From: Bacteroidetes bacterium 2013_40CM_41_45
GTDB lineage: Bacteria; Bacteroidota; Bacteroidia; AKYH767-A; 2013-40CM-41-45
Direction of reading: 5' to 3'
Assembly: GCA_002215675.1 (NCBI GenBank)
Contig: NGFH01000003.1
Span: forward strand, 80,957-144,956
DNA: 64,000 bases
Shown here: piece by piece, positions 33,255-64,000 of the stretch
Position numbering within the stretch: position 1 is the stretch's first letter
Layout of the letters: every line of letters starts with the position of its first letter
Notes under the pieces: generated by a model
What the model was told of the DNA's origin: nothing
Seen by the model: the letters and a program-made list of their open reading frames with translations, nothing else
Database searches by the model: none
Made by a program: the position numbers and the translations under genes

Positions 33255-33264
33255 GAGAATGAAA

Positions 33265-34356
33265 ATGACCGATAGGCCAATGGCAACACTTAGAACTGTA
33301 AATAATAAATATCCTATTCCTGAAAAGGATAGGATTGAATTGATTCAGGTAGATGGATGGCAAGTAATTTCAAAAAAGGATGAATTTGAAATTGGTGATA
33401 TGTGCATATATGCTGAACCAGATTCTATTTTTCCTGAAATACCAGATTTTGAATTTCTTCGTCCTAAAAAATTTCGTATTAAAACTATGAAGATGGCTGG
33501 AGTTATTAGTCAAGGCATTGTTTTTCCATTATCAATTCTCCCCCTCCGCAACAAGAAATATGTTCTTGGCGAAGATGTTACGGAATTGATTGGTATCACA
33601 AAATATAAAAGTGAACCAGATAATTCAATTCCACAACCAACATGGATGAAAAATCCAATTGTTAAAAAACTTTTGAGATATAAAATTTTTAGAACAATTC
33701 TTTTGCCAAATAAAGAATATAAAGGATTTCCAAAATTCATTTCTAAAACAGATGAAGAAAATGTTCAAAATTTACCATATTTATTTTCTGAAGAATTTAA
33801 AAACGTTCCATTTGCTGTTCGTGAAAAAATAGAAGGTCAATCAGGAACGTGGTTTCTTCAAAGAAAAAAGAATTGGTTTGGAAAAGAAATTTTTGAATTT
33901 GGAGTTTGTTCAAGAAATATTCGTAAATTCAAAAAAGATAATTCATCATTTTGGAAAGTTGCCATAAAATATAATATTGAAAATATTCTAAAAGAATTAA
34001 TTGGTGATAAAAATGAATGGATTGCCATTCAGGGTGAATGTGTTGGCCCCGGCATTCAAGGCAATATCTATAAATTAAATGATGTTGATGTTTATATGTT
34101 TAATTATATAGAACCAAAAGGAAAAATGGATGATAAAATAGCTGAAGTTGTTATGAATTCATATAGCATTAGATGGTGTCCTTTAATTGATAATGAATAT
34201 TATCTTCCATCAACAGCAAATGATGTTCTTGAATATTCAAATGGTACATCGCTTTTATATAATACTGACCGTGAAGGATTGGTATTTCGCAATTACGAAA
34301 AAAATATTAGCTTCAAAGCACGTTCACCTAAATATTTATTAAAATCTGATACATAG
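33265..34356 (+). CDS. ATP-dependent RNA-ligase-like nucleotidyltransferase
   Basis: KIEGQSG (motif I-like K-x-E/D-G), EGLVFRN (motif IV-like) and FKARSPKYLLK (motif V-like). Confidence 0.5.
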   Translation: MTDRPMATLRTVNNKYPIPEKDRIELIQVDGWQVISKKDEFEIGDMCIYAEPDSIFPEIPDFEFLRPKKFRIKTMKMAGVISQGIVFPLSILPLRNKKYVLGEDVTELIGITKYKSEPDNSIPQPTWMKNPIVKKLLRYKIFRTILLPNKEYKGFPKFISKTDEENVQNLPYLFSEEFKNVPFAVREKIEGQSGTWFLQRKKNWFGKEIFEFGVCSRNIRKFKKDNSSFWKVAIKYNIENILKELIGDKNEWIAIQGECVGPGIQGNIYKLNDVDVYMFNYIEPKGKMDDKIAEVVMNSYSIRWCPLIDNEYYLPSTANDVLEYSNGTSLLYNTDREGLVFRNYEKNISFKARSPKYLLKSDT

Positions 34357-46935: not shown

Positions 46936-48030
46936 ATGGAACTAGAATTACTTGCTTTTATCAAACATAATCCTGATTGGAAAACAATTCTTCAGGAAAA
47001 ACCATATGGAATAACTATCAAAGAAAAAAATGGTTATATTCTCTTTATGTACAGTCAAATTGAAAGTGATTTCAAATTATCTTTAGTACGTGAATGTCGT
47101 GGTTTGATTTTACGTGAAAAAGATTTAAAACCTGTTTGTATGGCTTTCAAAAAATTCGGAAATTATGGTGAAAGTTATGTTCCCGATATTGACTGGTCAA
47201 ATGTTAAAGTACAAGAAAAAGCTGACGGTTCGATAATTAAATTGTGGTTTGATAATAATGAATGGCATGTTTCTACAAATGGAACAATTGATGCATCTGA
47301 TGCTTCACTATCAGAAAATTCAATGTTAATAGATGGATGTATTTATAAAAATTATTCTGAATTATTTCATAGTGTTTTTCCACAAAATTTATATTATGAT
47401 GTTTTGAATATTGATTTATGCTATATCTTTGAATTAGTTTCAAATTTTAATAGAGTTGTGATTCCTTATAATGAAACAGCATTGTACCATATTGGCACTA
47501 GAAATATGAAAACCCTAGAAGAATTAGACATTGACATTGGAATTAAAAAACCAAAATTATATAATTTAACTTCATTAGAAGAAATTTTAGAAATAGTAAA
47601 AAAATTACCATTCAATGATGAAGGATATGTTATTTTAGACAAATTTTGGAATAGATTAAAAATAAAATCATTAGCATATATTTCTGCTCATCATTTAAAA
47701 AATAATGGTGTTGTTACAAAGAATCGTGTTCTTGATATGATTAGAACCGGCGAACAATCTGAGTTTCTTAATTATTATCCAGAATATCAAGAAATTTTTA
47801 ATGAAGTCCAAAATAAAATTAATAAACTTTTGGTATCCATTGAACATGATTATATTCTTTTCAAAAACAGAAAATTTGAAGATAGAAAAGAAATGGCATT
47901 ATGGGTAAATCAAACTGTTTGTCCGTCTGCTATATATAGTTTATATGATAAAAAAGTATCAGATGTAAATAGTTTTGTTTTCGGATTAACTAATGAGCGT
48001 TTATTGAAAATGATTGGAGAAAAAGAATGA
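46936..48030 (+). CDS. ATP-dependent RNA ligase, T4 Rnl1-like
   Basis: Motif I VQEKADGS (K at ~aa 95), motif IV DEGYVILDK, motif V RLKIKSLAY. 364 aa. Confidence 0.65.
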   Translation: MELELLAFIKHNPDWKTILQEKPYGITIKEKNGYILFMYSQIESDFKLSLVRECRGLILREKDLKPVCMAFKKFGNYGESYVPDIDWSNVKVQEKADGSIIKLWFDNNEWHVSTNGTIDASDASLSENSMLIDGCIYKNYSELFHSVFPQNLYYDVLNIDLCYIFELVSNFNRVVIPYNETALYHIGTRNMKTLEELDIDIGIKKPKLYNLTSLEEILEIVKKLPFNDEGYVILDKFWNRLKIKSLAYISAHHLKNNGVVTKNRVLDMIRTGEQSEFLNYYPEYQEIFNEVQNKINKLLVSIEHDYILFKNRKFEDRKEMALWVNQTVCPSAIYSLYDKKVSDVNSFVFGLTNERLLKMIGEKE

Positions 48031-48941
48031 CTGAACTAAGATTTCTTGTTGGAATTCCTGCAAGTGGAAAATCTACTTTTGCAAAAGAGATTTTAAAAGA
48101 TAATAATTATGTTCTTGTTTCATCGGATTCATATCGTGAAAAAATTTATGGTTCGGAAGAAATTCAAGGAAATAAAAATGAACTTTTTGAAATTATCAAT
48201 AAAGATATTATTCAATATCTTATGGATGGTAAATCTGTAATTTTTGATGCGACAAATATAGATTTAAAAAAGAGAATGGAATTAATAAAAAAAATAAATT
48301 CAAAAGTTTCAGATATTTATATAACAGCACAAGTTGTTGCAACCCAATATAAAATCTGCTTGGAAAACAACAGGAAACGGACACGTTTCGTCCCCGAATT
48401 CGTTATTAAGCGCATGTATGAAAATTTTACTTTTCCTCAAAATTTTGAAGGTATTCACAATGTCTTTATTCGGTATGATTATGATAAATATGATTATCGT
48501 CAAGAATGGCTTGAAGAACTAATGGATGATTTCAACCAAGATAATCCCCATCATAGTTCTACGCTTGGTCAGCACACACTTAAGGTTTTTGAAAATATTT
48601 TGACTGTTGCTCCCGATAATCATAGATTGCAATTGGCCGCTAAATTTCACGATATAGGAAAATTATATACAAAGACTTATAAAGATTCAAAAGGAAATCA
48701 GAAAGATTTTGCCAGTTATTATAATCATGAGCAAGTTTCGACATATGAATCTATGTTTTATCTTAAAGAAAAAAATATTCAAAATTTTGATATGTTCTAT
48801 ATTCTTGGATTGATTCAATTTCATATGAGGTTATATGGAATCAATTCTGATAAAAGCAGAGATAAACTTATAAATCTCATTGGTAGACAAATGTATGAAG
48901 ATTTAATTTTATTAAATGATGCAGATAAAAATGGAAAATAA
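48027..48941 (+). CDS. P-loop polynucleotide kinase fused to HD-domain phosphohydrolase (RNA end-healing enzyme)
   Basis: Walker A GIPASGKST. HD motifs HHSSTLGQH...KFHDIGK. 4-nt overlap with the ligase gene. Confidence 0.65.
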   Translation: MTELRFLVGIPASGKSTFAKEILKDNNYVLVSSDSYREKIYGSEEIQGNKNELFEIINKDIIQYLMDGKSVIFDATNIDLKKRMELIKKINSKVSDIYITAQVVATQYKICLENNRKRTRFVPEFVIKRMYENFTFPQNFEGIHNVFIRYDYDKYDYRQEWLEELMDDFNQDNPHHSSTLGQHTLKVFENILTVAPDNHRLQLAAKFHDIGKLYTKTYKDSKGNQKDFASYYNHEQVSTYESMFYLKEKNIQNFDMFYILGLIQFHMRLYGINSDKSRDKLINLIGRQMYEDLILLNDADKNGK

Positions 48942-50061
48942 TATAGAAAAAATAATAAAATTTTTAAATATAAAAAATTATATTTTCATTGATAATTACC
49001 ATAAAAATAATCAAATAAGAGTTATTATCCAAGACAAACTTGGCTATAAATATGATGTTCAATTTGGAAATTTAAGTGTTCAAAAGCCAAAAATTGTCCA
49101 TAAATTCAATCCCTTTAGTTTAGAAAATATAGGAATATGGATAAAGATAAATAAAAAGAATTTTTTATTATTGAAAAATAATATTTATCTAAATGCCAAT
49201 GAAAAGTTAAGATTTAAATGTTTGGATAATAAATGTAAAGAAATTTTTTTCGCAAGTTGGCATTCAATTTTTAGTGGTAGAGGATGCACATTTTGTTCTG
49301 GTTTTGAAGTTGGCAGACATAATAATTTAGAATATTTATTTCCTGAAATTGCAAAAGAATGGGATAAATCAAATTTTATAAAAGCATTTGAAATTACCTG
49401 TGGTTCAACAGAAAATATTTTATGGAAATGTAAAAAATGTGGTTATAAGTGGAATGCTTCTCCGAATCAAAGAACTTATTATAAAACGGGTTGTCCTTCT
49501 TGTTCTGGATTAATTGTTTCGGATAGTAATAGATTGTCTATTTTATTTCCAGAAATATCAAAGGAATGGCATCCAATAAAAAATGGGAATTTGACTCCAA
49601 ATGATATTAGTTATGGAAGCAATAAGAAATTTTGGTGGCTATGCCCAAAAGGACATGAATATTATTCTGCTGTTAATAATAGAATAAATGGAAGGAATTG
49701 TAAAAAATGCAAAATTAAAAAAGGTGAAAAAGAAATTATTAAAATTCTTGATATTTATAATGTAAAATATAAATTTCAATGTAATGATTTTAAAGATTGC
49801 AGAGACAAAATTGTTTTATATTTTGATTTTTATTTACCTGACTATAATATTTGTATTGAATATCAGGGAATTCAACATTATGAACCAATTGATTTTGCTG
49901 GTCGCGGTAAGAAATGGGCAAAAGAAGAATTTAAGAAAAATAAAAGAAGAGATAAAATCAAGATAAAATATTGTCAGAAAAATAATATTAAATTGATTAT
50001 TATACCTTATTGGAATTTTGATGAAATTGAAAATATTTTAAAAAGGAATTTGAAAATATGA
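48931..50061 (+). CDS. Zn-ribbon-repeat (DUF4379-like) protein with C-terminal nuclease-like module
   Basis: Repeats LFPEIAKEW...CPSCSG and LFPEISKEWHP...W.CPKGHEY. C-terminus is FDFYLPDYNICIEYQGIQHYEP. The start is uncertain (48916 or 48931). Confidence 0.6.
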   Translation: MENNIEKIIKFLNIKNYIFIDNYHKNNQIRVIIQDKLGYKYDVQFGNLSVQKPKIVHKFNPFSLENIGIWIKINKKNFLLLKNNIYLNANEKLRFKCLDNKCKEIFFASWHSIFSGRGCTFCSGFEVGRHNNLEYLFPEIAKEWDKSNFIKAFEITCGSTENILWKCKKCGYKWNASPNQRTYYKTGCPSCSGLIVSDSNRLSILFPEISKEWHPIKNGNLTPNDISYGSNKKFWWLCPKGHEYYSAVNNRINGRNCKKCKIKKGEKEIIKILDIYNVKYKFQCNDFKDCRDKIVLYFDFYLPDYNICIEYQGIQHYEPIDFAGRGKKWAKEEFKKNKRRDKIKIKYCQKNNIKLIIIPYWNFDEIENILKRNLKI

Positions 50062-59906: not shown

Positions 59907-60131
59907 ATGACAACTAAAAGACGTTTTTTCTATCATTATAATAAGCCATATTCACAAAAAATGGGTGAGACTTATTGGAGTGTTCATTTTAAAGATGTTT
60001 GTTATTTTGTCAAGGGAATTGATTGTCGTGTTCCAACACAAAGCAAAAATCAAAAAATACAACCTCGTGCTATTATGATTGGGTTTGCCAATAAGGTTGA
60101 ACTTCAAAATAATATAGCAATTATTAGTTGA
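59907..60131 (+). CDS. hypothetical protein
   Basis: 74 aa. Confidence 0.45.
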   Translation: MTTKRRFFYHYNKPYSQKMGETYWSVHFKDVCYFVKGIDCRVPTQSKNQKIQPRAIMIGFANKVELQNNIAIIS

Positions 60132-60137
60132 AAAACC

Positions 60138-60166
60138 TTGACAAAATTGAAAAAGTGTGGTAATAT
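60138..60166 (+). promoter_or_regulatory. sigma70-type promoter TTGACA-N17-TGgTAATAT for the tRNA cluster
   Basis: TTGACA at 60138-60143 and TAATAT at 60161-60166. Confidence 0.55.
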
Positions 60167-60424
60167 TATTTATATATTGGTTGTGAAATTGGCACAATAA
60201 ATTCGTGGGTGTATGGTCTACGATAATTGAATGTTGACTACATTCTCTGAAAAGGTTGTCATCCAGTCAACAAATTTGTTTTCGTTGGATGGTGCAGAAA
60301 TGCAGTTATCGCACAACATGACAAATAGGAAAAGGTTAGCCAATATATAATAAATTATCGTCTTACATATTATTTATTTCTCAATAATGAAATCAATAAC
60401 ACAAGCCGATAATTTATATAAAAT

Positions 60425-60506
60425 GAGAATATGATGGAATGCAGACATGCCAACCTTAGAAGTTGGTGCTAGAAATAGCATACTGGTTCAAATCCAGTTA
60501 TTCTCA
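60425..60506 (+). tRNA. tRNA-Leu(TAG), type II
   Basis: Hand fold gives acceptor GAGAATA/TATTCTC, anticodon stem CCAAC/GTTGG with loop CTTAGAA, a long variable arm, and T-arm ACTGG-TTCAAAT-CCAGT. Confidence 0.7.
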
Positions 60507-60510
60507 CTAT

Positions 60511-60585
60511 GCTGATATGAAGGGAATTGGCATACCTATTTCGCTTAAAACGAAATGTTTACAGGTTCGACTCCTGTTATCAGCA
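60511..60585 (+). tRNA. tRNA with anticodon TAA (reads UUA; Leu by anticodon) but short variable loop (type I-like)
   Basis: Acceptor GCTGATA/TATCAGC. Anticodon stem TTTCG/CGAAA with loop CTTAAAA. T-arm ACAGG-TTCGACT-CCTGT. 75 nt. Confidence 0.5.
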
Positions 60586-60599
60586 CAAACAATCACTAT

Positions 60600-60685
60600 G
60601 TTCATGTGGCTGGAATTTGGTAGACGCGGCAGTTTCAAAAACTGTTATCTGAAAAGATGTGTGAGTTCGATTCTCTCCATGAACA
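60600..60685 (+). tRNA. tRNA-Leu(CAA), type II
   Basis: Acceptor GTTCATG/CATGAAC. Anticodon loop TTCAAAA. Variable arm ATCT-GAAA-AGAT. 86 nt. Confidence 0.6.
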
Positions 60686-60689
60686 CTAT

Positions 60690-60761
60690 GTCCCATTATT
60701 TCAATGGATAGAATAAAACGCTACGAACGTTTTGGTGCGAGTTCGACTCTTGCATGGGACT
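60690..60761 (+). tRNA. tRNA-Arg(ACG)
   Basis: Acceptor GTCCCAT/ATGGGAC. Anticodon stem AAACG/CGTTT with loop CTACGAA. T-arm GCGAG-TTCGACT-CTTGC. Confidence 0.65.
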
Positions 60762-60787
60762 CAAAAATTAAATGAAAAGGATGTTTT

Positions 60788-61102
60788 ATGAATAAATTTT
60801 GGTGTATATTTAGAATATTTTTTAAGAATACACTAGGAGAACTTTATGCTATTATGATAGGTGTGCCATTAGTTATAATAGTTTTTTTATTGATTTCTCA
60901 TTGGATAAGTAATTATGGAATTTATATAAAATCTTTTCTTTATAATATTCTTTATCAAATTTGTTTATTTTTATATTTATATAAAGATTTTATTATTTAT
61001 TTTCTATTTTCAATTTTCAATTTATTTTATATTTATGGATTTTATTCTGCATTGAAATATCAATGGAATAAAGCCAAAAAAGAATACAGTGGTATATTAT
61101 GA
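60788..61102 (+). CDS. small membrane protein
   Basis: 104 aa, hydrophobic. Lies between tRNA groups. Confidence 0.4.
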   Translation: MNKFWCIFRIFFKNTLGELYAIMIGVPLVIIVFLLISHWISNYGIYIKSFLYNILYQICLFLYLYKDFIIYFLFSIFNLFYIYGFYSALKYQWNKAKKEYSGIL

Positions 61103-61455
61103 GATTTCAAATTGCACAAAAAGGTGAAAAAAGAGATGTGGAAGGATTTCTTTGGCTTCCAAGAGGCTTTGATGGCAATGAAATAAGATGGTTAGAACAT
61201 GCTAAATGGAGAGAATATTATGATGGTATTAATTGGATATTTTACTATTGGAATGATTAAACGCAGTTAATAAAGGAAATATTTTATTAATAAAAAAATA
61301 GAGTTGGGCATATTCGTATGGATTGTAGTAAGTTTATTGTATTTTATAATTCTAGGATTTACTTTACGTCATATAATGTTACTATCATTTGGCTTTATTT
61401 ATGGGATTTTAAAAATAATTTCATCAATTGATGAAACGTGAATTTTATCAATAAT

Positions 61456-61536
61456 GAGTTTGTAGCCTATTGGGATGGCATCTGCCTCTTAAGCAGACAG
61501 AGTAATCTAGAACAGGTTCGATTCCTGTCAGACTCA
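61456..61536 (+). tRNA. atypical tRNA, anticodon CTT (Lys by anticodon) with 3-bp D-stem and 14-nt variable region
   Basis: Acceptor GAGTTTG/CAGACTC (one G-U pair). Anticodon stem TCTGC/GCAGA with loop CTCTTAA. T-arm ACAGG-TTCGATT-CCTGT. Confidence 0.45.
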
Positions 61537-61549
61537 CAGAAATAAAAAT

Positions 61550-61635
61550 GGAAGAATGCATTCATGGGAATAACTAGTCTTGAAAACTAGGCTACCGAGT
61601 AGCCCTCGATAACGGTTCGATTCCGTATCCTTCCT
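61550..61635 (+). tRNA. tRNA-Ser(TGA), type II (boundaries approximate)
   Basis: Anticodon stem CTAGT/ACTAG with loop CTTGAAA. Variable arm GCTAC-CGA-GTAGC. T-loop TTCGATT. Confidence 0.5.
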
Positions 61636-61672
61636 CTAGTAAGAAAAATTCATTTTCAAAAGGATATTAAAA

Positions 61673-61804
61673 ATGTCGCCAAAGAATGAAGTTACTAAAA
61701 AATATTTGATTACAAGAGATGAAGAAGTTTTCACTGATTGGCTTTTCAAAAGTCAGGTGAGCGATTATATTCGCAGAGGATATATCGTTGAAGAAATAAA
61801 GTAA
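61673..61804 (+). CDS. small hypothetical protein (43 aa) between tRNAs
   Basis: Manual translation gives MSPKNEVTKKYLITRDEEVF... Confidence 0.3.
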   Translation: MSPKNEVTKKYLITRDEEVFTDWLFKSQVSDYIRRGYIVEEIK

Positions 61805-61810
61805 TGAATT

Positions 61811-61900
61811 GGAATCATGACAGAGTAGCAATGTGTATGTTTGCTAAACATAAGCCACCAGTAACATGATGCGTAGGTGCAAATCCTACTGATTCCGCCA
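61811..61900 (+). tRNA. tRNA-Ser(GCT), type II, with encoded 3' CCA
   Basis: Acceptor GGAATCA/TGATTCC. Anticodon stem TATGT/ACATA with loop TTGCTAA. T-arm GTAGG-TGCAAAT-CCTAC. CCA at 61898-61900. Confidence 0.55.
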
Positions 61901-61903
61901 AAT

Positions 61904-61974
61904 GACACCTATTCCTACCGGGTGGGGAATTGTCTGCAAAACAATTAATAGAGATTCGACTTCTCTAGGTGTCT
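61904..61974 (+). tRNA. tRNA-Cys(GCA)
   Basis: Acceptor GACACCT/AGGTGTC. Anticodon stem ATTGT/ACAAT with loop CTGCAAA. T-arm AGAGA-TTCGACT-TCTCT. Confidence 0.65.
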
Positions 61975-62005
61975 CTTTCAGCATTTGTTGAAACAGGAGC
62001 AAATA

Positions 62006-62143
62006 ATGAAAATTGAAAAAGCAAACAAAAGAGATAAAAAACGCTTCAAAAAGAAGAATGGAATGATTGTTGGAAATAAAAGTATTTTTATAATACAAGA
62101 AATACAAATAAAGAAATCGAATAAATTAAAGAAAAATAAATAA
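62006..62143 (+). CDS. small basic peptide (45 aa) between tRNAs
   Basis: RBS CAGGAG. Sequence is MKIEKANKRDKKRFKKKNGM... Confidence 0.3.
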   Translation: MKIEKANKRDKKRFKKKNGMIVGNKSIFIIQEIQIKKSNKLKKNK

Positions 62144-62147
62144 TTAT

Positions 62148-62220
62148 GTGTTTGTAGTGTAGTTAGTCTGCACGTTTGCCTGAAGAGCAGAAAGTGCTAG
62201 TGCAATTCTAGCCGGACACA
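62148..62220 (+). tRNA. tRNA-Phe(GAA)
   Basis: Acceptor GTGTTTG/CGGACAC (two G-U pairs). D-stem GTGT/GCAC. Anticodon loop CTGAAGA. T-arm GCTAG-TGCAATT-CTAGC. Confidence 0.6.
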
Positions 62221-62224
62221 CTAT

Positions 62225-62301
62225 CCTCCAATATACCCTCGTTCTTATAAAGCGCAGAAAGGTTAATTGGTGACATGATGGTTCGAGTCCATCTTGGAGG
62301 A
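62225..62301 (+). ncRNA. tRNA-like element: perfect 7-bp acceptor stem and canonical T-arm, but no anticodon arm found by hand
   Basis: CCTCCAA...GATGG-TTCGAGT-CCATC-TTGGAGG-A. No 5-bp/7-nt-loop pairing fits in the intervening 45 nt. Confidence 0.35.
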
Positions 62302-62305
62302 CTCT

Positions 62306-62378
62306 ATTCCTATAACTCAATAGTAGAGTGTCCGTTTTACATGCGGAATGTTGGGGGTGCAAGTCCCTCTAGGAATAC
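62306..62378 (+). tRNA. tRNA-Val(TAC)
   Basis: Acceptor ATTCCTA/TAGGAAT. D-stem ACTC/GAGT. Anticodon stem TCCGT/GCGGA with loop TTTACAT. T-arm GGGGG-TGCAAGT-CCCTC. Confidence 0.65.
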
Positions 62379-62399
62379 TAAAATTTAAGGAGAATAAAA

Positions 62400-62648
62400 A
62401 TGAATGAAAATGATATAGAACACATTATTAATCAAATGAAATATATTCCTATTAGAAATTTTTATCATGCAGATAGATATGATACAGATAATGAATATGT
62501 TATTCATCTTTGGACTGAAATAGGTCAAAAAAATTTTGACATTAGAATTAAAAAAGAAAAAATTAAATGTCCATATTGTGACGATTTTTATTATGAGGGT
62601 GGTTGGGCAAATCATTTATTAATGAAACATCATCAACATGCTGGATAA
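62400..62648 (+). CDS. hypothetical protein (CPYC ... HLLMKHHQH zinc-finger-like)
   Basis: RBS AAGGAGAA. Confidence 0.5.
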   Translation: MNENDIEHIINQMKYIPIRNFYHADRYDTDNEYVIHLWTEIGQKNFDIRIKKEKIKCPYCDDFYYEGGWANHLLMKHHQHAG

Positions 62649-62656
62649 ATTATAAA

Positions 62657-62911
62657 ATGAGACAAGTTAAACTTTTATATTTCAAATCATATGGTAAATA
62701 TTATTCTGAAGGTTCGTATGCTACTCAAAAAGAATATGATTTTGATGTTTATACCGAAGTAGAAAATATGTTTTTAATTGGTAGTTATCCGGGACTATAT
62801 AACACTGGAAAACCTCATGAATTTGATTGTGTTATTTTCCCTGAAAATGGTGTTCCCGGAATTCTTTATGCAAAAGAAATACAAAATTTATTTAAGATGA
62901 TTAATGGCTAA
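62657..62911 (+). CDS. hypothetical protein
   Basis: Start re-set to MRQVKL. Confidence 0.45.
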   Translation: MRQVKLLYFKSYGKYYSEGSYATQKEYDFDVYTEVENMFLIGSYPGLYNTGKPHEFDCVIFPENGVPGILYAKEIQNLFKMING

Positions 62912-63149
62912 ATTTGATTTAAGACCGATAATGGAATTTCAAGTAAAAGTTGTTTTGACCGAAGAAGAAGCTAGGGCGTTGCAATATATTTGTAAATATG
63001 GTGCAGATACTTTAATCAAAGGCTTGGATACTGTCATGACCACAAAAGAAATTAGCAAGGGAATCAGAAGTCTTGTTCGTGATACACAAGATTCTATAAA
63101 TAAACAAATTAGTAAAATTGATGAAGCTAGAAAAGTAGTTGAAGAATAA
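62904..63149 (+). CDS. hypothetical protein
   Basis: 81 aa. Confidence 0.45.
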   Translation: MAKFDLRPIMEFQVKVVLTEEEARALQYICKYGADTLIKGLDTVMTTKEISKGIRSLVRDTQDSINKQISKIDEARKVVEE

Positions 63150-63152
63150 TTG

Positions 63153-63446
63153 ATGAAATTTATGTTTTATGGAAATAATATAATTATGTTCAAACAAAAA
63201 TGTCCAATATGTGATTCAAAATTAGAATATGATATTGATAATTTAGATTTTTATCTAATGGAAGAGCATTATAATTGCCCCAATAAAGATTATTCTTATT
63301 CATATGAATATGGAATGACAAACATAACAATAGGAAATAAAGAATTTAATTATACTTATTTGGATAGCAATGTAAAAAAAGCTTTAATTTTAAAAGAAAT
63401 CAAATTAGAGACTGAAAGATTGAAGTCCTTGACAAGATTAGAATAA
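63153..63446 (+). CDS. hypothetical protein (CPICD...CPNKD)
   Basis: 97 aa. Confidence 0.4.
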   Translation: MKFMFYGNNIIMFKQKCPICDSKLEYDIDNLDFYLMEEHYNCPNKDYSYSYEYGMTNITIGNKEFNYTYLDSNVKKALILKEIKLETERLKSLTRLE

Positions 63447-63483
63447 TATGGTATAATTATATTAAATTAGAAAGGAATTATTT

Positions 63484-63708
63484 ATGAAATCATATCATAT
63501 TGTTTTATTGTCTGCTTTGGCAACTTTGTGTGCTTTATTTTCTTTTGTTAATTCTGTTCGAGATATGGAAATTGATAATAATGCTTTCATTCTCGAAACA
63601 AATAACTATGACTTAATTATTGCTCATAATGATAATCATGTTGAATTTAATTTGAATTATTTTTATGGTAATAAAGCATATCAAATAGAAAAAATTTTTA
63701 TTTTTTAG
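63484..63708 (+). CDS. secreted/membrane small protein (N-terminal signal-like helix)
   Basis: RBS AGGAA. 74 aa. Confidence 0.45.
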   Translation: MKSYHIVLLSALATLCALFSFVNSVRDMEIDNNAFILETNNYDLIIAHNDNHVEFNLNYFYGNKAYQIEKIFIF

Positions 63709-63819
63709 TTATTTATTGACTGTTTTTGGTGCATAGTCAAATTTATATCGTAATGATATAAGGGACGCTTGGCGACCTACATAGAAAAGCATAGTAACCA
63801 TATTTATTAAAAATTAAAT

Positions 63820-63891
63820 GCTGTTTTGGTCTATTGGCTAAGACAATTCTTTCTCAAAGAATTATGATGGGTTCGATTCCCATAAACAGCA
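63820..63891 (+). tRNA. tRNA-Glu(CTC)
   Basis: Acceptor GCTGTTT/AAACAGC. D-stem GTCT/AGAC. Anticodon stem ATTCT/AGAAT with loop TTCTCAA. T-arm ATGGG-TTCGATT-CCCAT. Confidence 0.6.
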
Positions 63892-64000
63892 CAAATATAA
63901 AAGACACGCACAGTAATCAAACCCAATTCAACCGTTAATTGAAAAATAAGTGTCTTGAAAAATAATTTATATATGTACAGATAGACTCTCACAGCAAATA

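Follow-up and report, generated by a model that had tools for sequence, protein, structure and literature searches.

Can a gene with a faultless tRNA acceptor stem and T-arm, but with no regular anticodon arm in sight, encode a working tRNA? This question is raised by a 77-base element at positions 62225-62301 (+) of a 64,000-nucleotide stretch of contig NGFH01000003.1, assembled under the name Bacteroidetes bacterium 2013_40CM_41_45; the whole of this stretch is referred to below as the window. The element sits within an 11-gene tRNA cluster identified in the window with ARAGORN and, as the initial annotation had stated, lies between tRNA-Phe (62148-62221) and tRNA-Val (62306-62378), from which it is separated by 3 and 4 nt, respectively. 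Read from 5' to 3', it consists of CCTCCAA-TATACCCTCGTTCTTATAAAGCGCAGAAAGGTTAATTGGTGACAT-GATGG-TTCGAGT-CCATC-TTGGAGG-A. Comparison with its relatives suggests that it is probably a functional, translation-competent elongator tRNA-Ile(UAU) with a non-circularly permuted core and that it belongs to a widespread phage family. Its tRNA positions 10-21, namely the 5' strand of the D-stem and the D-loop, have very likely been displaced to behind the anticodon arm.

The initial annotation had noted a perfect 7-bp acceptor pairing, a discriminator A, and a textbook T-arm, and reading of the sequence bears out all three. All seven acceptor pairs form and the discriminator A is unpaired, while the T-arm has the canonical form, with a 5-bp stem, a 7-nt loop of the form T54-T55-C56-R57-A58, and the pair G53-C61. 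The further statement that a recognisable anticodon arm is lacking does not hold. The 45 interior bases indeed contain no 5-bp stem with a 7-nt loop, but a 4-bp stem (C-G, G-C, U·G, and U-A), extended by a U·C mismatch, encloses the 7-nt loop CUUAUAA, which fits the anticodon-loop signature Y32-U33-NNN-A37-A38 and contains the anticodon UAU. Only 8 nt (TATACCCT) separate the acceptor stem from the anticodon stem, and no D-arm hairpin is present between positions 9 and 26. The suspicion, voiced in the same annotation, that its own fold was wrong was right; the part out of place is the D-arm.

Standard tools pass over the element. ARAGORN did not call it as a tRNA in the window, and an Rfam scan of positions 60000-64000 at E<=10 gave no match to the tRNA family RF00005 (gathering threshold of 29 bits) on its + strand. 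The YrlA model produced a partial match of 20.4 bits, with a threshold of 69, that covers the T-arm only, and a Tymo_tRNA-like match falls on the neighbouring tRNA-Val, outside the element. Sub-threshold antisense matches to the Plastid-ycf2 5' untranslated region model (RF04354) were obtained at 62225-62302 (-), 62306-62378 (-), and 61811-61898 (-). This identity was rejected because ordinary neighbouring tRNAs match too, which marks the match as a generic tRNA-antisense artefact; the model apparently includes an antisense tRNA. Folding of the element as a single sequence, with a minimum free energy (MFE) of -17.9 kcal/mol and a z value of -0.87 relative to shuffles, was uninformative.

A phage-borne family and its proposed permuted core

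A blastn search with the element and its flanks matched 41 phage records, corresponding to 40 Streptomyces BE-cluster phages and one 462-kb uncultured phage, with matches that cover the element and not the tRNAs beside it. In the three copies compared, the acceptor stems are entirely different in sequence and pair in each copy, and the inner 4-bp hairpin varies yet pairs (CGTT/AGCG, CACT/AGTG, and CCGG/CCGG). The single-stranded blocks TATACCCT and GAAAGGTTAATYGGTNACAT are near-identical among these copies. Their hairpin loop has the sequence CTNATAA/C, which is the form of the anticodon loop of bacterial tRNA-Ile.

A first exact-pattern scan of IMG/VR returned 35 loci, 30 of which were real, and two further pattern scans returned at least 119 loci each. 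Filtering of the IMG/VR matches for a paired acceptor stem resulted in an alignment of 108 distinct core members (A1); altogether, more than 110 distinct homologues were found in phage tRNA clusters. A covariance model was built from 43 homologues (MAFFT alignment A2), with the window excluded. This leave-one-out model found exactly positions 62225-62301, end to end and gap-free, with 85.2 bits (E = 5.7e-28). The nearest relative of the window element shares 79% identity with it, and the GC content of the carrier loci ranges from 23 to 63%. When the collected loci were searched with the covariance model, a tier of divergent paralogues emerged at 30-84 bits. One locus holds a degraded-looking copy (L203:912-987, -), with 34 bits and a poor T-arm, beside an intact member (L203:727-803); this copy is probably a true pseudogene of the permuted family.

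A scan of a bacterial and archaeal genome collection gave 102 matches, most of them due to chance. The family is essentially phage-borne, since only about 11 of these matches were real, all of them on contigs of metagenome-assembled genomes (MAGs) and none in an isolate genome. Cultured carriers are the Streptomyces BE-cluster phages, with up to three places per genome, Microbacterium phage A3Wally, and Rhodococcus phage Trina. In existing annotations the genes of the family are absent or appear as tRNA-Leu, tRNA-Phe, or tRNA-OTHER. In Streptomyces phage EGole, the permuted tRNA is labelled tRNA-Leu(UUA), and 39 related genomes leave the gene unannotated; elsewhere the label is tRNA-Phe (Mildred21) or tRNA-OTHER (Trina). 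EGole gene 107, a coding sequence annotated as 'nucleotidyltransferase' (L001:959-1480, +), ends 13 nt upstream of the permuted tRNA. Among 15 test loci, six permuted relatives reach 29-33 bits with the Rfam tRNA model, compared to 40-74 bits for their canonical neighbours.

Covariance analysis across homologous phages, which the initial annotation had proposed, supports every helix through compensatory changes, including the relocated D-stem. In A1, the proportion of paired cells amounts to 99.3% for the acceptor stem, 99.5% for the inner four pairs of the anticodon stem, and 98.3% for the T-stem. Compensatory changes were detected at 7/7 acceptor pairs and 4/5 T-stem pairs, the inner four anticodon pairs covary strongly, and G53-C61 is invariant in all 108 members. 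The covariation score of A1 was matched by no shuffle, and sliding of the partners lowered pairing to 36-48%. At position 27·43, 102 of the 108 members have U·U, and there are divergent members with a full 5-bp anticodon stem.

The relocated D-stem was found to vary in a coordinated manner. In A2, pair 23-12 is AU in 36 sequences, CG in 5, GC in 1, and other in 1; pair 24-11 is CG in 42 and UA in 1, and pair 25-10 is CG in 42 and GC in 1. These three pairs show compensatory double changes and zero one-sided changes. Part of the D-stem had been set by the search patterns, which is why it hardly varies within the core family. Each of the 20 divergent members forms Watson-Crick pairs at 23-12 and 24-11, drawing on AU, CG, GC, and UA, and the D-stem strands include UCCG/CGGU, UCAC/GUGU, UCCC/GGGU, CCAG/CUGU, UCCA/UGGU, GCCG/UGGU, UGCC/GGCU, UCUC/GAGU, and AUGG/GCAU. 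Evidence of a tertiary kind comes from the base after A14, which covaries with the base before the T-stem (in A1, AU 77, GC 18, UG 4, GU 2, UA 1, other 6); the 15-48 Levitt pair behaves in this way. A14 never varies, and G makes up at least 90% of each of the columns of G18 and G19.

The displacement was also addressed by a cut-and-paste test, in which block [10-21] was returned to the front of [22-45] and the three extra linker A's were dropped. ARAGORN called 0 of the 108 members in their native order and 108 of 108 after the block had been moved back, all of them as normal cloverleaves with the expected anticodon. The standard cloverleaf that the initial annotation had suggested looking for with this program is therefore not found in the native order and appears only after this cut and re-paste.

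Three other motifs considered within the element were rejected. A D-like hairpin in the 3' region (GUU-AAUUGGU-NAC) was discarded as its proposed third pair shows no covariation (N is U, C, G, or A). A hammerhead-like core (CUGAUA...GAAA) was dismissed because its G is the anticodon wobble base, which varies among G, U, C, and A, and a K-turn at the internal loop was dismissed because the 5' strand offers no G·A partners.

Clear links emerge between the anticodons of the family and its identity marks. An anticodon-unconstrained scan gave, among 110 distinct members, GAT in 43, ACG in 36, TAT in 22, TCT in 5, and CAT in 4. A descriptor search of all collected loci that relied on the layout only, without core sequence, found 119 molecules. 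Its true members carry Ile (GAT 42, TAT 24, CAT 3) or Arg anticodons (ACG 33, TCT 9, TCG 2, GCG 1, CCT 1), the remaining few being mis-parsed canonical tRNAs; the carrier loci also hold many canonical tRNAs of all kinds. Among core members, U33 and a purine at position 37 are present in 108/108. Position 20, the base after G18G19, is A in approximately 40/40 Arg members and U in approximately 65/68 Ile members. A20 is the classical ArgRS determinant. The discriminator is A73 in 68/68 Ile members and G, A, or U in Arg members, and many Arg members encode the CCA end. The window element, with a TAT anticodon, U20, and A73, matches the Ile set, and it contains U12-A23, which is reportedly a determinant for the E. 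coli IleRS. Single-base steps join the anticodons of the family (GAU-UAU-UCU-UCG-ACG and UAU-CAU), and the family could have diversified via anticodon shifts combined with a switch between U20 and A20.

The resulting secondary structure is a three-way junction in which the acceptor stem and the T-arm meet a single long D/anticodon helix of about 10 layers (Table 1). The D-stem encloses the anticodon arm because the block 10-21 sits behind that arm, and the AGAAA linker would return the chain to the base of the D-stem. In divergent members this linker has 3-11 nt and another sequence. The core tertiary nucleotides are all kept in permuted order, namely U8, A14, R15-Y48, G18G19, and the 13·22 mismatch. 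Such a mismatch is common in tRNAs, and U8 pairs with A14 in canonical tRNA.

Table 1. Anatomy of the permuted element, with tRNA numbering in parentheses; coordinates refer to the window.
Feature	Window position	Strand	Remarks
Acceptor stem, 5' strand (1-7), CCTCCAA	62225..62231	+	pairs with 62294-62300
U8-A9 connector, TA	62232..62233	+	invariant in 108/108 family members
Equivalent of the D-stem 3' strand (22-25), TACC	62234..62237	+	pairs with GGTT at 62261-62264; covariation
Equivalent of position 26, C	62238..62238	+	invariant in the core family; placed by analogy with the canonical layout
Anticodon stem, 5' strand (27-31), T + CGTT	62239..62243	+	four inner pairs (62240-62243 with 62251-62254) covary strongly; 27·43 is a U·C mismatch
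Anticodon loop (32-38), CTTATAA	62244..62250	+	anticodon TAT at 62246-62248, predicted to read AUA (Ile)
Anticodon stem, 3' strand (39-43), AGCG + C	62251..62255	+	pairing and family covariation
Linker AGAAA (in 44/45 positions plus extra A's)	62256..62260	+	GAAA invariant in the core family
Equivalent of the D-stem 5' strand (10-13), GGTT	62261..62264	+	pairs with 62234-62237
D-loop-like strand fused to the end of the variable loop, A14 A15 T16 T17 G18 G19 T20 G A C A T48	62265..62276	+	
T-arm (49-65), GATGG / TTCGAGT / CCATC	62277..62293	+	GATGG 62277-62281, TTCGAGT 62282-62288, CCATC 62289-62293
Acceptor stem, 3' strand (66-72), TTGGAGG, and discriminator A73	62294..62301	+	CTCT follows; CCA not encoded

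The tertiary contacts of tRNA are 8-14-21, 9-23-12, 45-10-25, 46-22-13, 15-48, 18-55, and 19-56. In the canonical molecule, A9 contacts 12-23 next to residue 22, residue 45 contacts 10-25, and residue 21 is adjacent to 46-48. By joining such tertiary neighbours at its new junctions (9 to 22, 45 to 10, and 21 to 46-48), the permuted chain could trace the same L-shape, and by this analogy a three-dimensional (3D) shape like that of tRNA is plausible. In such a shape, the D-stem and the anticodon stem would be stacked, and G18G19 would extend to the T-loop. Normal maturation, charging by IleRS, and decoding of AUA can be expected because the acceptor/T branch, which is read by RNase P, the 3' processing enzymes, the CCA enzyme, and EF-Tu, is untouched. 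In such a pathway, the element would be cotranscribed with the flanking tRNA-Phe and tRNA-Val, excised by RNase P and the 3' processing enzymes, which read the acceptor/T-arm, and would then receive its CCA end. It may subsequently be charged by the host IleRS through A73, A35-U36, A37-A38, and U12-A23 and would decode AUA, a common codon in this 28%-GC phage. As for the origin of the permuted form, a tandem duplication of an internal segment, followed by loss of the outer copies, is plausible.

Competing explanations

Several observations weigh against a functional permuted tRNA-Ile(UAU). The D-stem is nearly invariant in the core subfamily, so its covariation rests on approximately 30 variant sequences. 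Nearest-neighbour energies do not single out the proposed fold, with -15.1 kcal/mol as compared to an MFE of -17.9 and -16.2 for a rival register, in which CCU pairs with AGG, and RNAalifold on A1 picks this rival register as well. The anticodon stem of the window copy comprises only 4 bp and a U·C mismatch, and the 3D argument is based on textbook tertiary contacts, not on modelling. A canonical tRNA-Ile(GAU) is found beside 13 of 80 GAU members, which could mean that the permuted form does something that a normal tRNA does not. Finally, an unmodified U34 in the UAU anticodon could misread AUG.

Among the alternatives, the one that survives best, although it is unlikely, is a tRNA mimic or decoy that copies tRNA-Ile, or tRNA-Arg in relatives, in order to absorb or trigger a factor directed at tRNA, such as a host anticodon nuclease, a toxin that acts on Ile-tRNA or Arg-tRNA, or a synthetase, without use by the ribosome. 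The core of the element is unlike that of every tRNA normally met by the ribosome, in some phages (L008) a permuted tRNA-Ile(GAU) stands next to a canonical one, and the invariance of the unpaired C26 and U27 and of GAAA in the core family is more than a passive linker needs. The window phage has two RNA ligase genes of the tRNA-repair kind, there is ample documentation of tRNA-targeting defences and of phage counter-tRNAs (PMC10264068, PMC11555353, PMC11464382), and the permuted tRNA look-alikes known so far, YrlA and the tRNA-like structures of turnip yellow mosaic virus (TYMV) and brome mosaic virus (BMV), are mimics only (PMC11472068). However, a decoy for an anticodon nuclease would need the anticodon stem-loop alone. 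What is conserved instead is the full feature set for translation: the 7/5 branch, U8-A14, 15-48, G18G19, the helix length, A73, and an A20/U20 choice that tracks the anticodon. The CCA end encoded by many Arg members likewise argues against a decoy, and in most loci the permuted gene is the sole tRNA of its anticodon. The regulatory or processing element and the nuclease decoy considered by the initial annotation fit poorly for related reasons, given that position 20 and the A73 of the Ile members track the anticodon and that the canonical tRNA is usually replaced.

A second alternative accepts a tRNA but not the permutation. In the CCU/AGG register, CCU (bases 13-15) pairs with AGG across a 5-nt bulge, and the element becomes a D-arm-less tRNA with an extended anticodon hairpin and a long unstructured variable region. 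Besides being the RNAalifold choice, this register is approximately 1 kcal/mol better for the window sequence and 100% paired in A1. Its three pairs show no covariation in this alignment, in which they had been set by the search patterns. Variation in these columns disrupts the CCU/AGG pairs in every instance, with 3 unpaired cells and 0 compensatory changes, and the ACC/GGU register is rescued each time. The CCU/AGG register also fails in divergent members, gives a 7-bp helix that is too short for the distance from the anticodon to the elbow, and leaves both the 15-48 covariation and the identity mark at position 20 unexplained, whereas the adopted register has 4 + 1 + 1 + 4 = 10 layers, like a normal tRNA. 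In the sequences at hand it is covariation, not thermodynamics, that decides for ACC/GGU, and the CCU/AGG register is very improbable.

Even less probable, by a little, is a transcript that is cut and religated, for instance by phage RNA ligases, to give a mature tRNA of canonical order, in the manner of the circularly permuted tRNA genes of algae and archaea. The window does encode two RNA ligases, and a single block move gives a perfect cloverleaf in 108/108 members. This route would, however, require that a folded core be cut twice and ligated twice. The block borders show no processing motif such as a bulge-helix-bulge, both acceptor strands lie at the ends of the gene from the outset, and all pairings form in the native order as it is.

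A decaying tRNA pseudogene or a chance tRNA-like fragment in the cluster, the former proposed by the initial annotation, would agree with the missing ARAGORN and Rfam calls and with a single-sequence fold no better than shuffles (z = -0.87), but it is effectively refuted by the comparative data: the more than 110 distinct homologues, which are not one recently spread identical sequence, come from phages of 23-63% GC and retain every helix by compensatory changes as well as an anticodon loop of exactly 7 nt, a model built without the window gives the window copy 85 bits, and the probable true pseudogene L203:912-987 (34 bits) looks quite different.

Genomic setting

In the 174 loci with at least one permuted member, the median number of canonical tRNAs is 7 per locus, and 140 of these loci hold at least 3. 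A canonical tRNA of the same anticodon was found alongside the permuted gene in 0/42 cases for TAT, 0/41 for ACG, 0/10 for TCT, and 13/80 for GAT, counts that are based on partial loci. The permuted gene thus usually replaces the canonical tRNA of its anticodon in the cluster. In the window, which has a GC content of 26-32%, ATA occurs 29 times per 1000 codons and represents 30% of the Ile codons, and ARAGORN found no other tRNA-Ile in the 64 kb.

It is possible, if speculative, that the permutation is adaptive. The surfaces for RNase P, the CCA enzyme, IleRS/ArgRS, EF-Tu, and the ribosome would be kept and the D-arm/variable-loop face and the backbone path altered, by which Ile and Arg tRNAs might escape a host- or phage-encoded tRNA-directed nuclease or toxin. 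Such an escape would agree with the present view that phage tRNAs serve as counter-defence (PMC10264068, PMC11555353, PMC11464382). A look-up of the literature for a known defence acting on tRNA-Ile or tRNA-Arg gave nothing specific.

The two RNA ligase genes of the window are located at 33259-34356 (+; phrog_968, 'RNA ligase', E = 7.7e-62) and at 46936-48030 (+; phrog_562, 'RNA ligase and tail fiber protein attachment catalyst', T4 Rnl1-like, E = 6.8e-42). T4 Rnl1 repairs tRNA that has been cut by an anticodon nuclease, and the phage may for this reason be equipped for tRNA conflict. A gene for an HNH or homing endonuclease (phrog_559, E = 3.7e-53) is present at 48916-50061 (+).

Several tRNAs of the window cluster are atypical. 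The tRNA-Lys(CTT) at 61456-61537 (+) has 82 nt and, according to the Rfam alignment, an 11-nt insertion in the variable region, which is unusual for Lys; class II tRNAs of bacteria are normally Leu, Ser, and Tyr. The tRNA-Cys(GCA) that ARAGORN called at 61904-61975 (+) has no Rfam tRNA match at E<=10, and the tRNA-Ser(TGA) at 61550-61636 (+) is matched by Rfam only as a sub-threshold tRNA-Sec (31.9 bits, with a threshold of 47). Two small open reading frames (ORFs) are interspersed among the tRNA genes. The one at 62006-62143 (+), between tRNA-Cys and tRNA-Phe, encodes a lysine-rich peptide of 45 aa and is preceded by a Shine-Dalgarno-like AGGAG, and the one at 62400-62648 (+), directly after tRNA-Val, encodes 82 aa with the zinc-finger-like motif CPYC...H..LMKHH.

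Further RNAs were noted in the loci of phages with permuted members. Two tRNA-Ile(GAT) of 84-85 nt (L039:2508-2591, -, and L037:9482-9566, +) possess a normal D-arm and a stem-loop in the variable region, which makes them class II-like; the phages concerned also carry permuted members, and these tRNAs may bear on the origin of the permuted form. GOLLD RNAs (L149:6432-6889, -, and L140:6036-6505, -; 200 and 160 bits) and tmRNAs (L037:516-872, +, and L011:8156-8519, +) lie beside the tRNA clusters of permuted-tRNA phages.

Relation to known systems and implications

The element shares much with a canonical tRNA-Ile (RF00005): the 7-bp acceptor stem, A73, the 5-bp T-stem with a TTCRANY loop, an anticodon loop of the bacterial Ile form (CUNAUAA), U8, A14, R15-Y48, G18G19, U12-A23, a D/anticodon helix of about 10 layers, and a location in a tRNA cluster. 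It differs in that positions 10-21 come after the anticodon arm, in that a three-way junction replaces the cloverleaf, and in that the anticodon stem of the core subfamily consists of 4 bp and a mismatch.

A non-canonical order of segments is also seen in the circularly permuted tRNA genes of Cyanidioschyzon merolae, other algae, and some archaea. In those genes the 3' half comes first, and the transcript is circularised and recut to a normal tRNA (PMC3978253, PMC3218864). The element is not a gene of this type since its ends are in their normal place, the swap is internal and non-circular, and no rearrangement of the RNA is suggested or required. A parallel is offered by the non-circularly permuted self-cleaving ribozymes (PMC10085705), which belong to another RNA class and in which an internal block swap likewise leaves the paired elements, and presumably also the spatial placement of the key nucleotides, unchanged. 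According to that study (NAR 2023), no non-circular permutation of a natural RNA was known before these ribozymes, and a permuted tRNA is not reported there.

Tolerance to a different backbone connectivity within a tRNA-shaped fold is otherwise known from the tRNA-like domain of YrlA and from the TYMV and BMV tRNA-like structures. YrlA carries a Ro-binding helix, and the viral structures reside at the 3' end of genomic RNAs with a pseudoknotted acceptor; although the TYMV structure is aminoacylated, none of them decodes (PMC11472068). The element is neither a YrlA-type nor a viral mimic; it has a plain 7-bp acceptor, a normal acceptor/T branch, and an anticodon loop. Of permuted forms, the 2024 survey lists tRNA mimics only (PMC11472068).

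Two further classes of unusual tRNAs can be set apart. With the D-arm-lacking mitochondrial tRNAs, such as metazoan mitochondrial tRNA-Ser(AGY) (PMC7609411), the element shares the short connector between the acceptor and the anticodon stem, but those tRNAs lose the D-stem, G18G19, and the elbow contact. The element is not of that type because it retains all of these features in a relocated form, the D-stem and G18G19 in particular. The allo-tRNAs (PMC5389517) are also non-canonical and come from metagenomes and phages, with UAU and Arg anticodons among them. They have altered branch lengths (8/4 or 9/3), a long variable arm, and a normal segment order, and the element is not an allo-tRNA because it has the standard 7/5 branch and differs in internal order alone.

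No description of the permuted-D-arm architecture was found in open-access papers and bioRxiv preprints, in which the conserved motifs were searched for as text too, and a 2020 review of non-canonical tRNAs does not mention this layout. The element would act like a tRNA yet lacks the connectivity by which the cloverleaf is defined. Because ARAGORN misses the genes of the family, some of them barely pass the Rfam threshold, and annotators mislabel or omit them, phage tRNA repertoires are likely to be under-counted, above all for AUA, AUY, CGN, and AGR codons. If the proposed assignment is true, it is the L-shape, and not the connectivity of the cloverleaf, that translation requires. The permuted family would then offer a natural test of which enzymes tolerate a changed backbone path, and the permuted tRNA could be a scaffold for orthogonal or engineered tRNAs.

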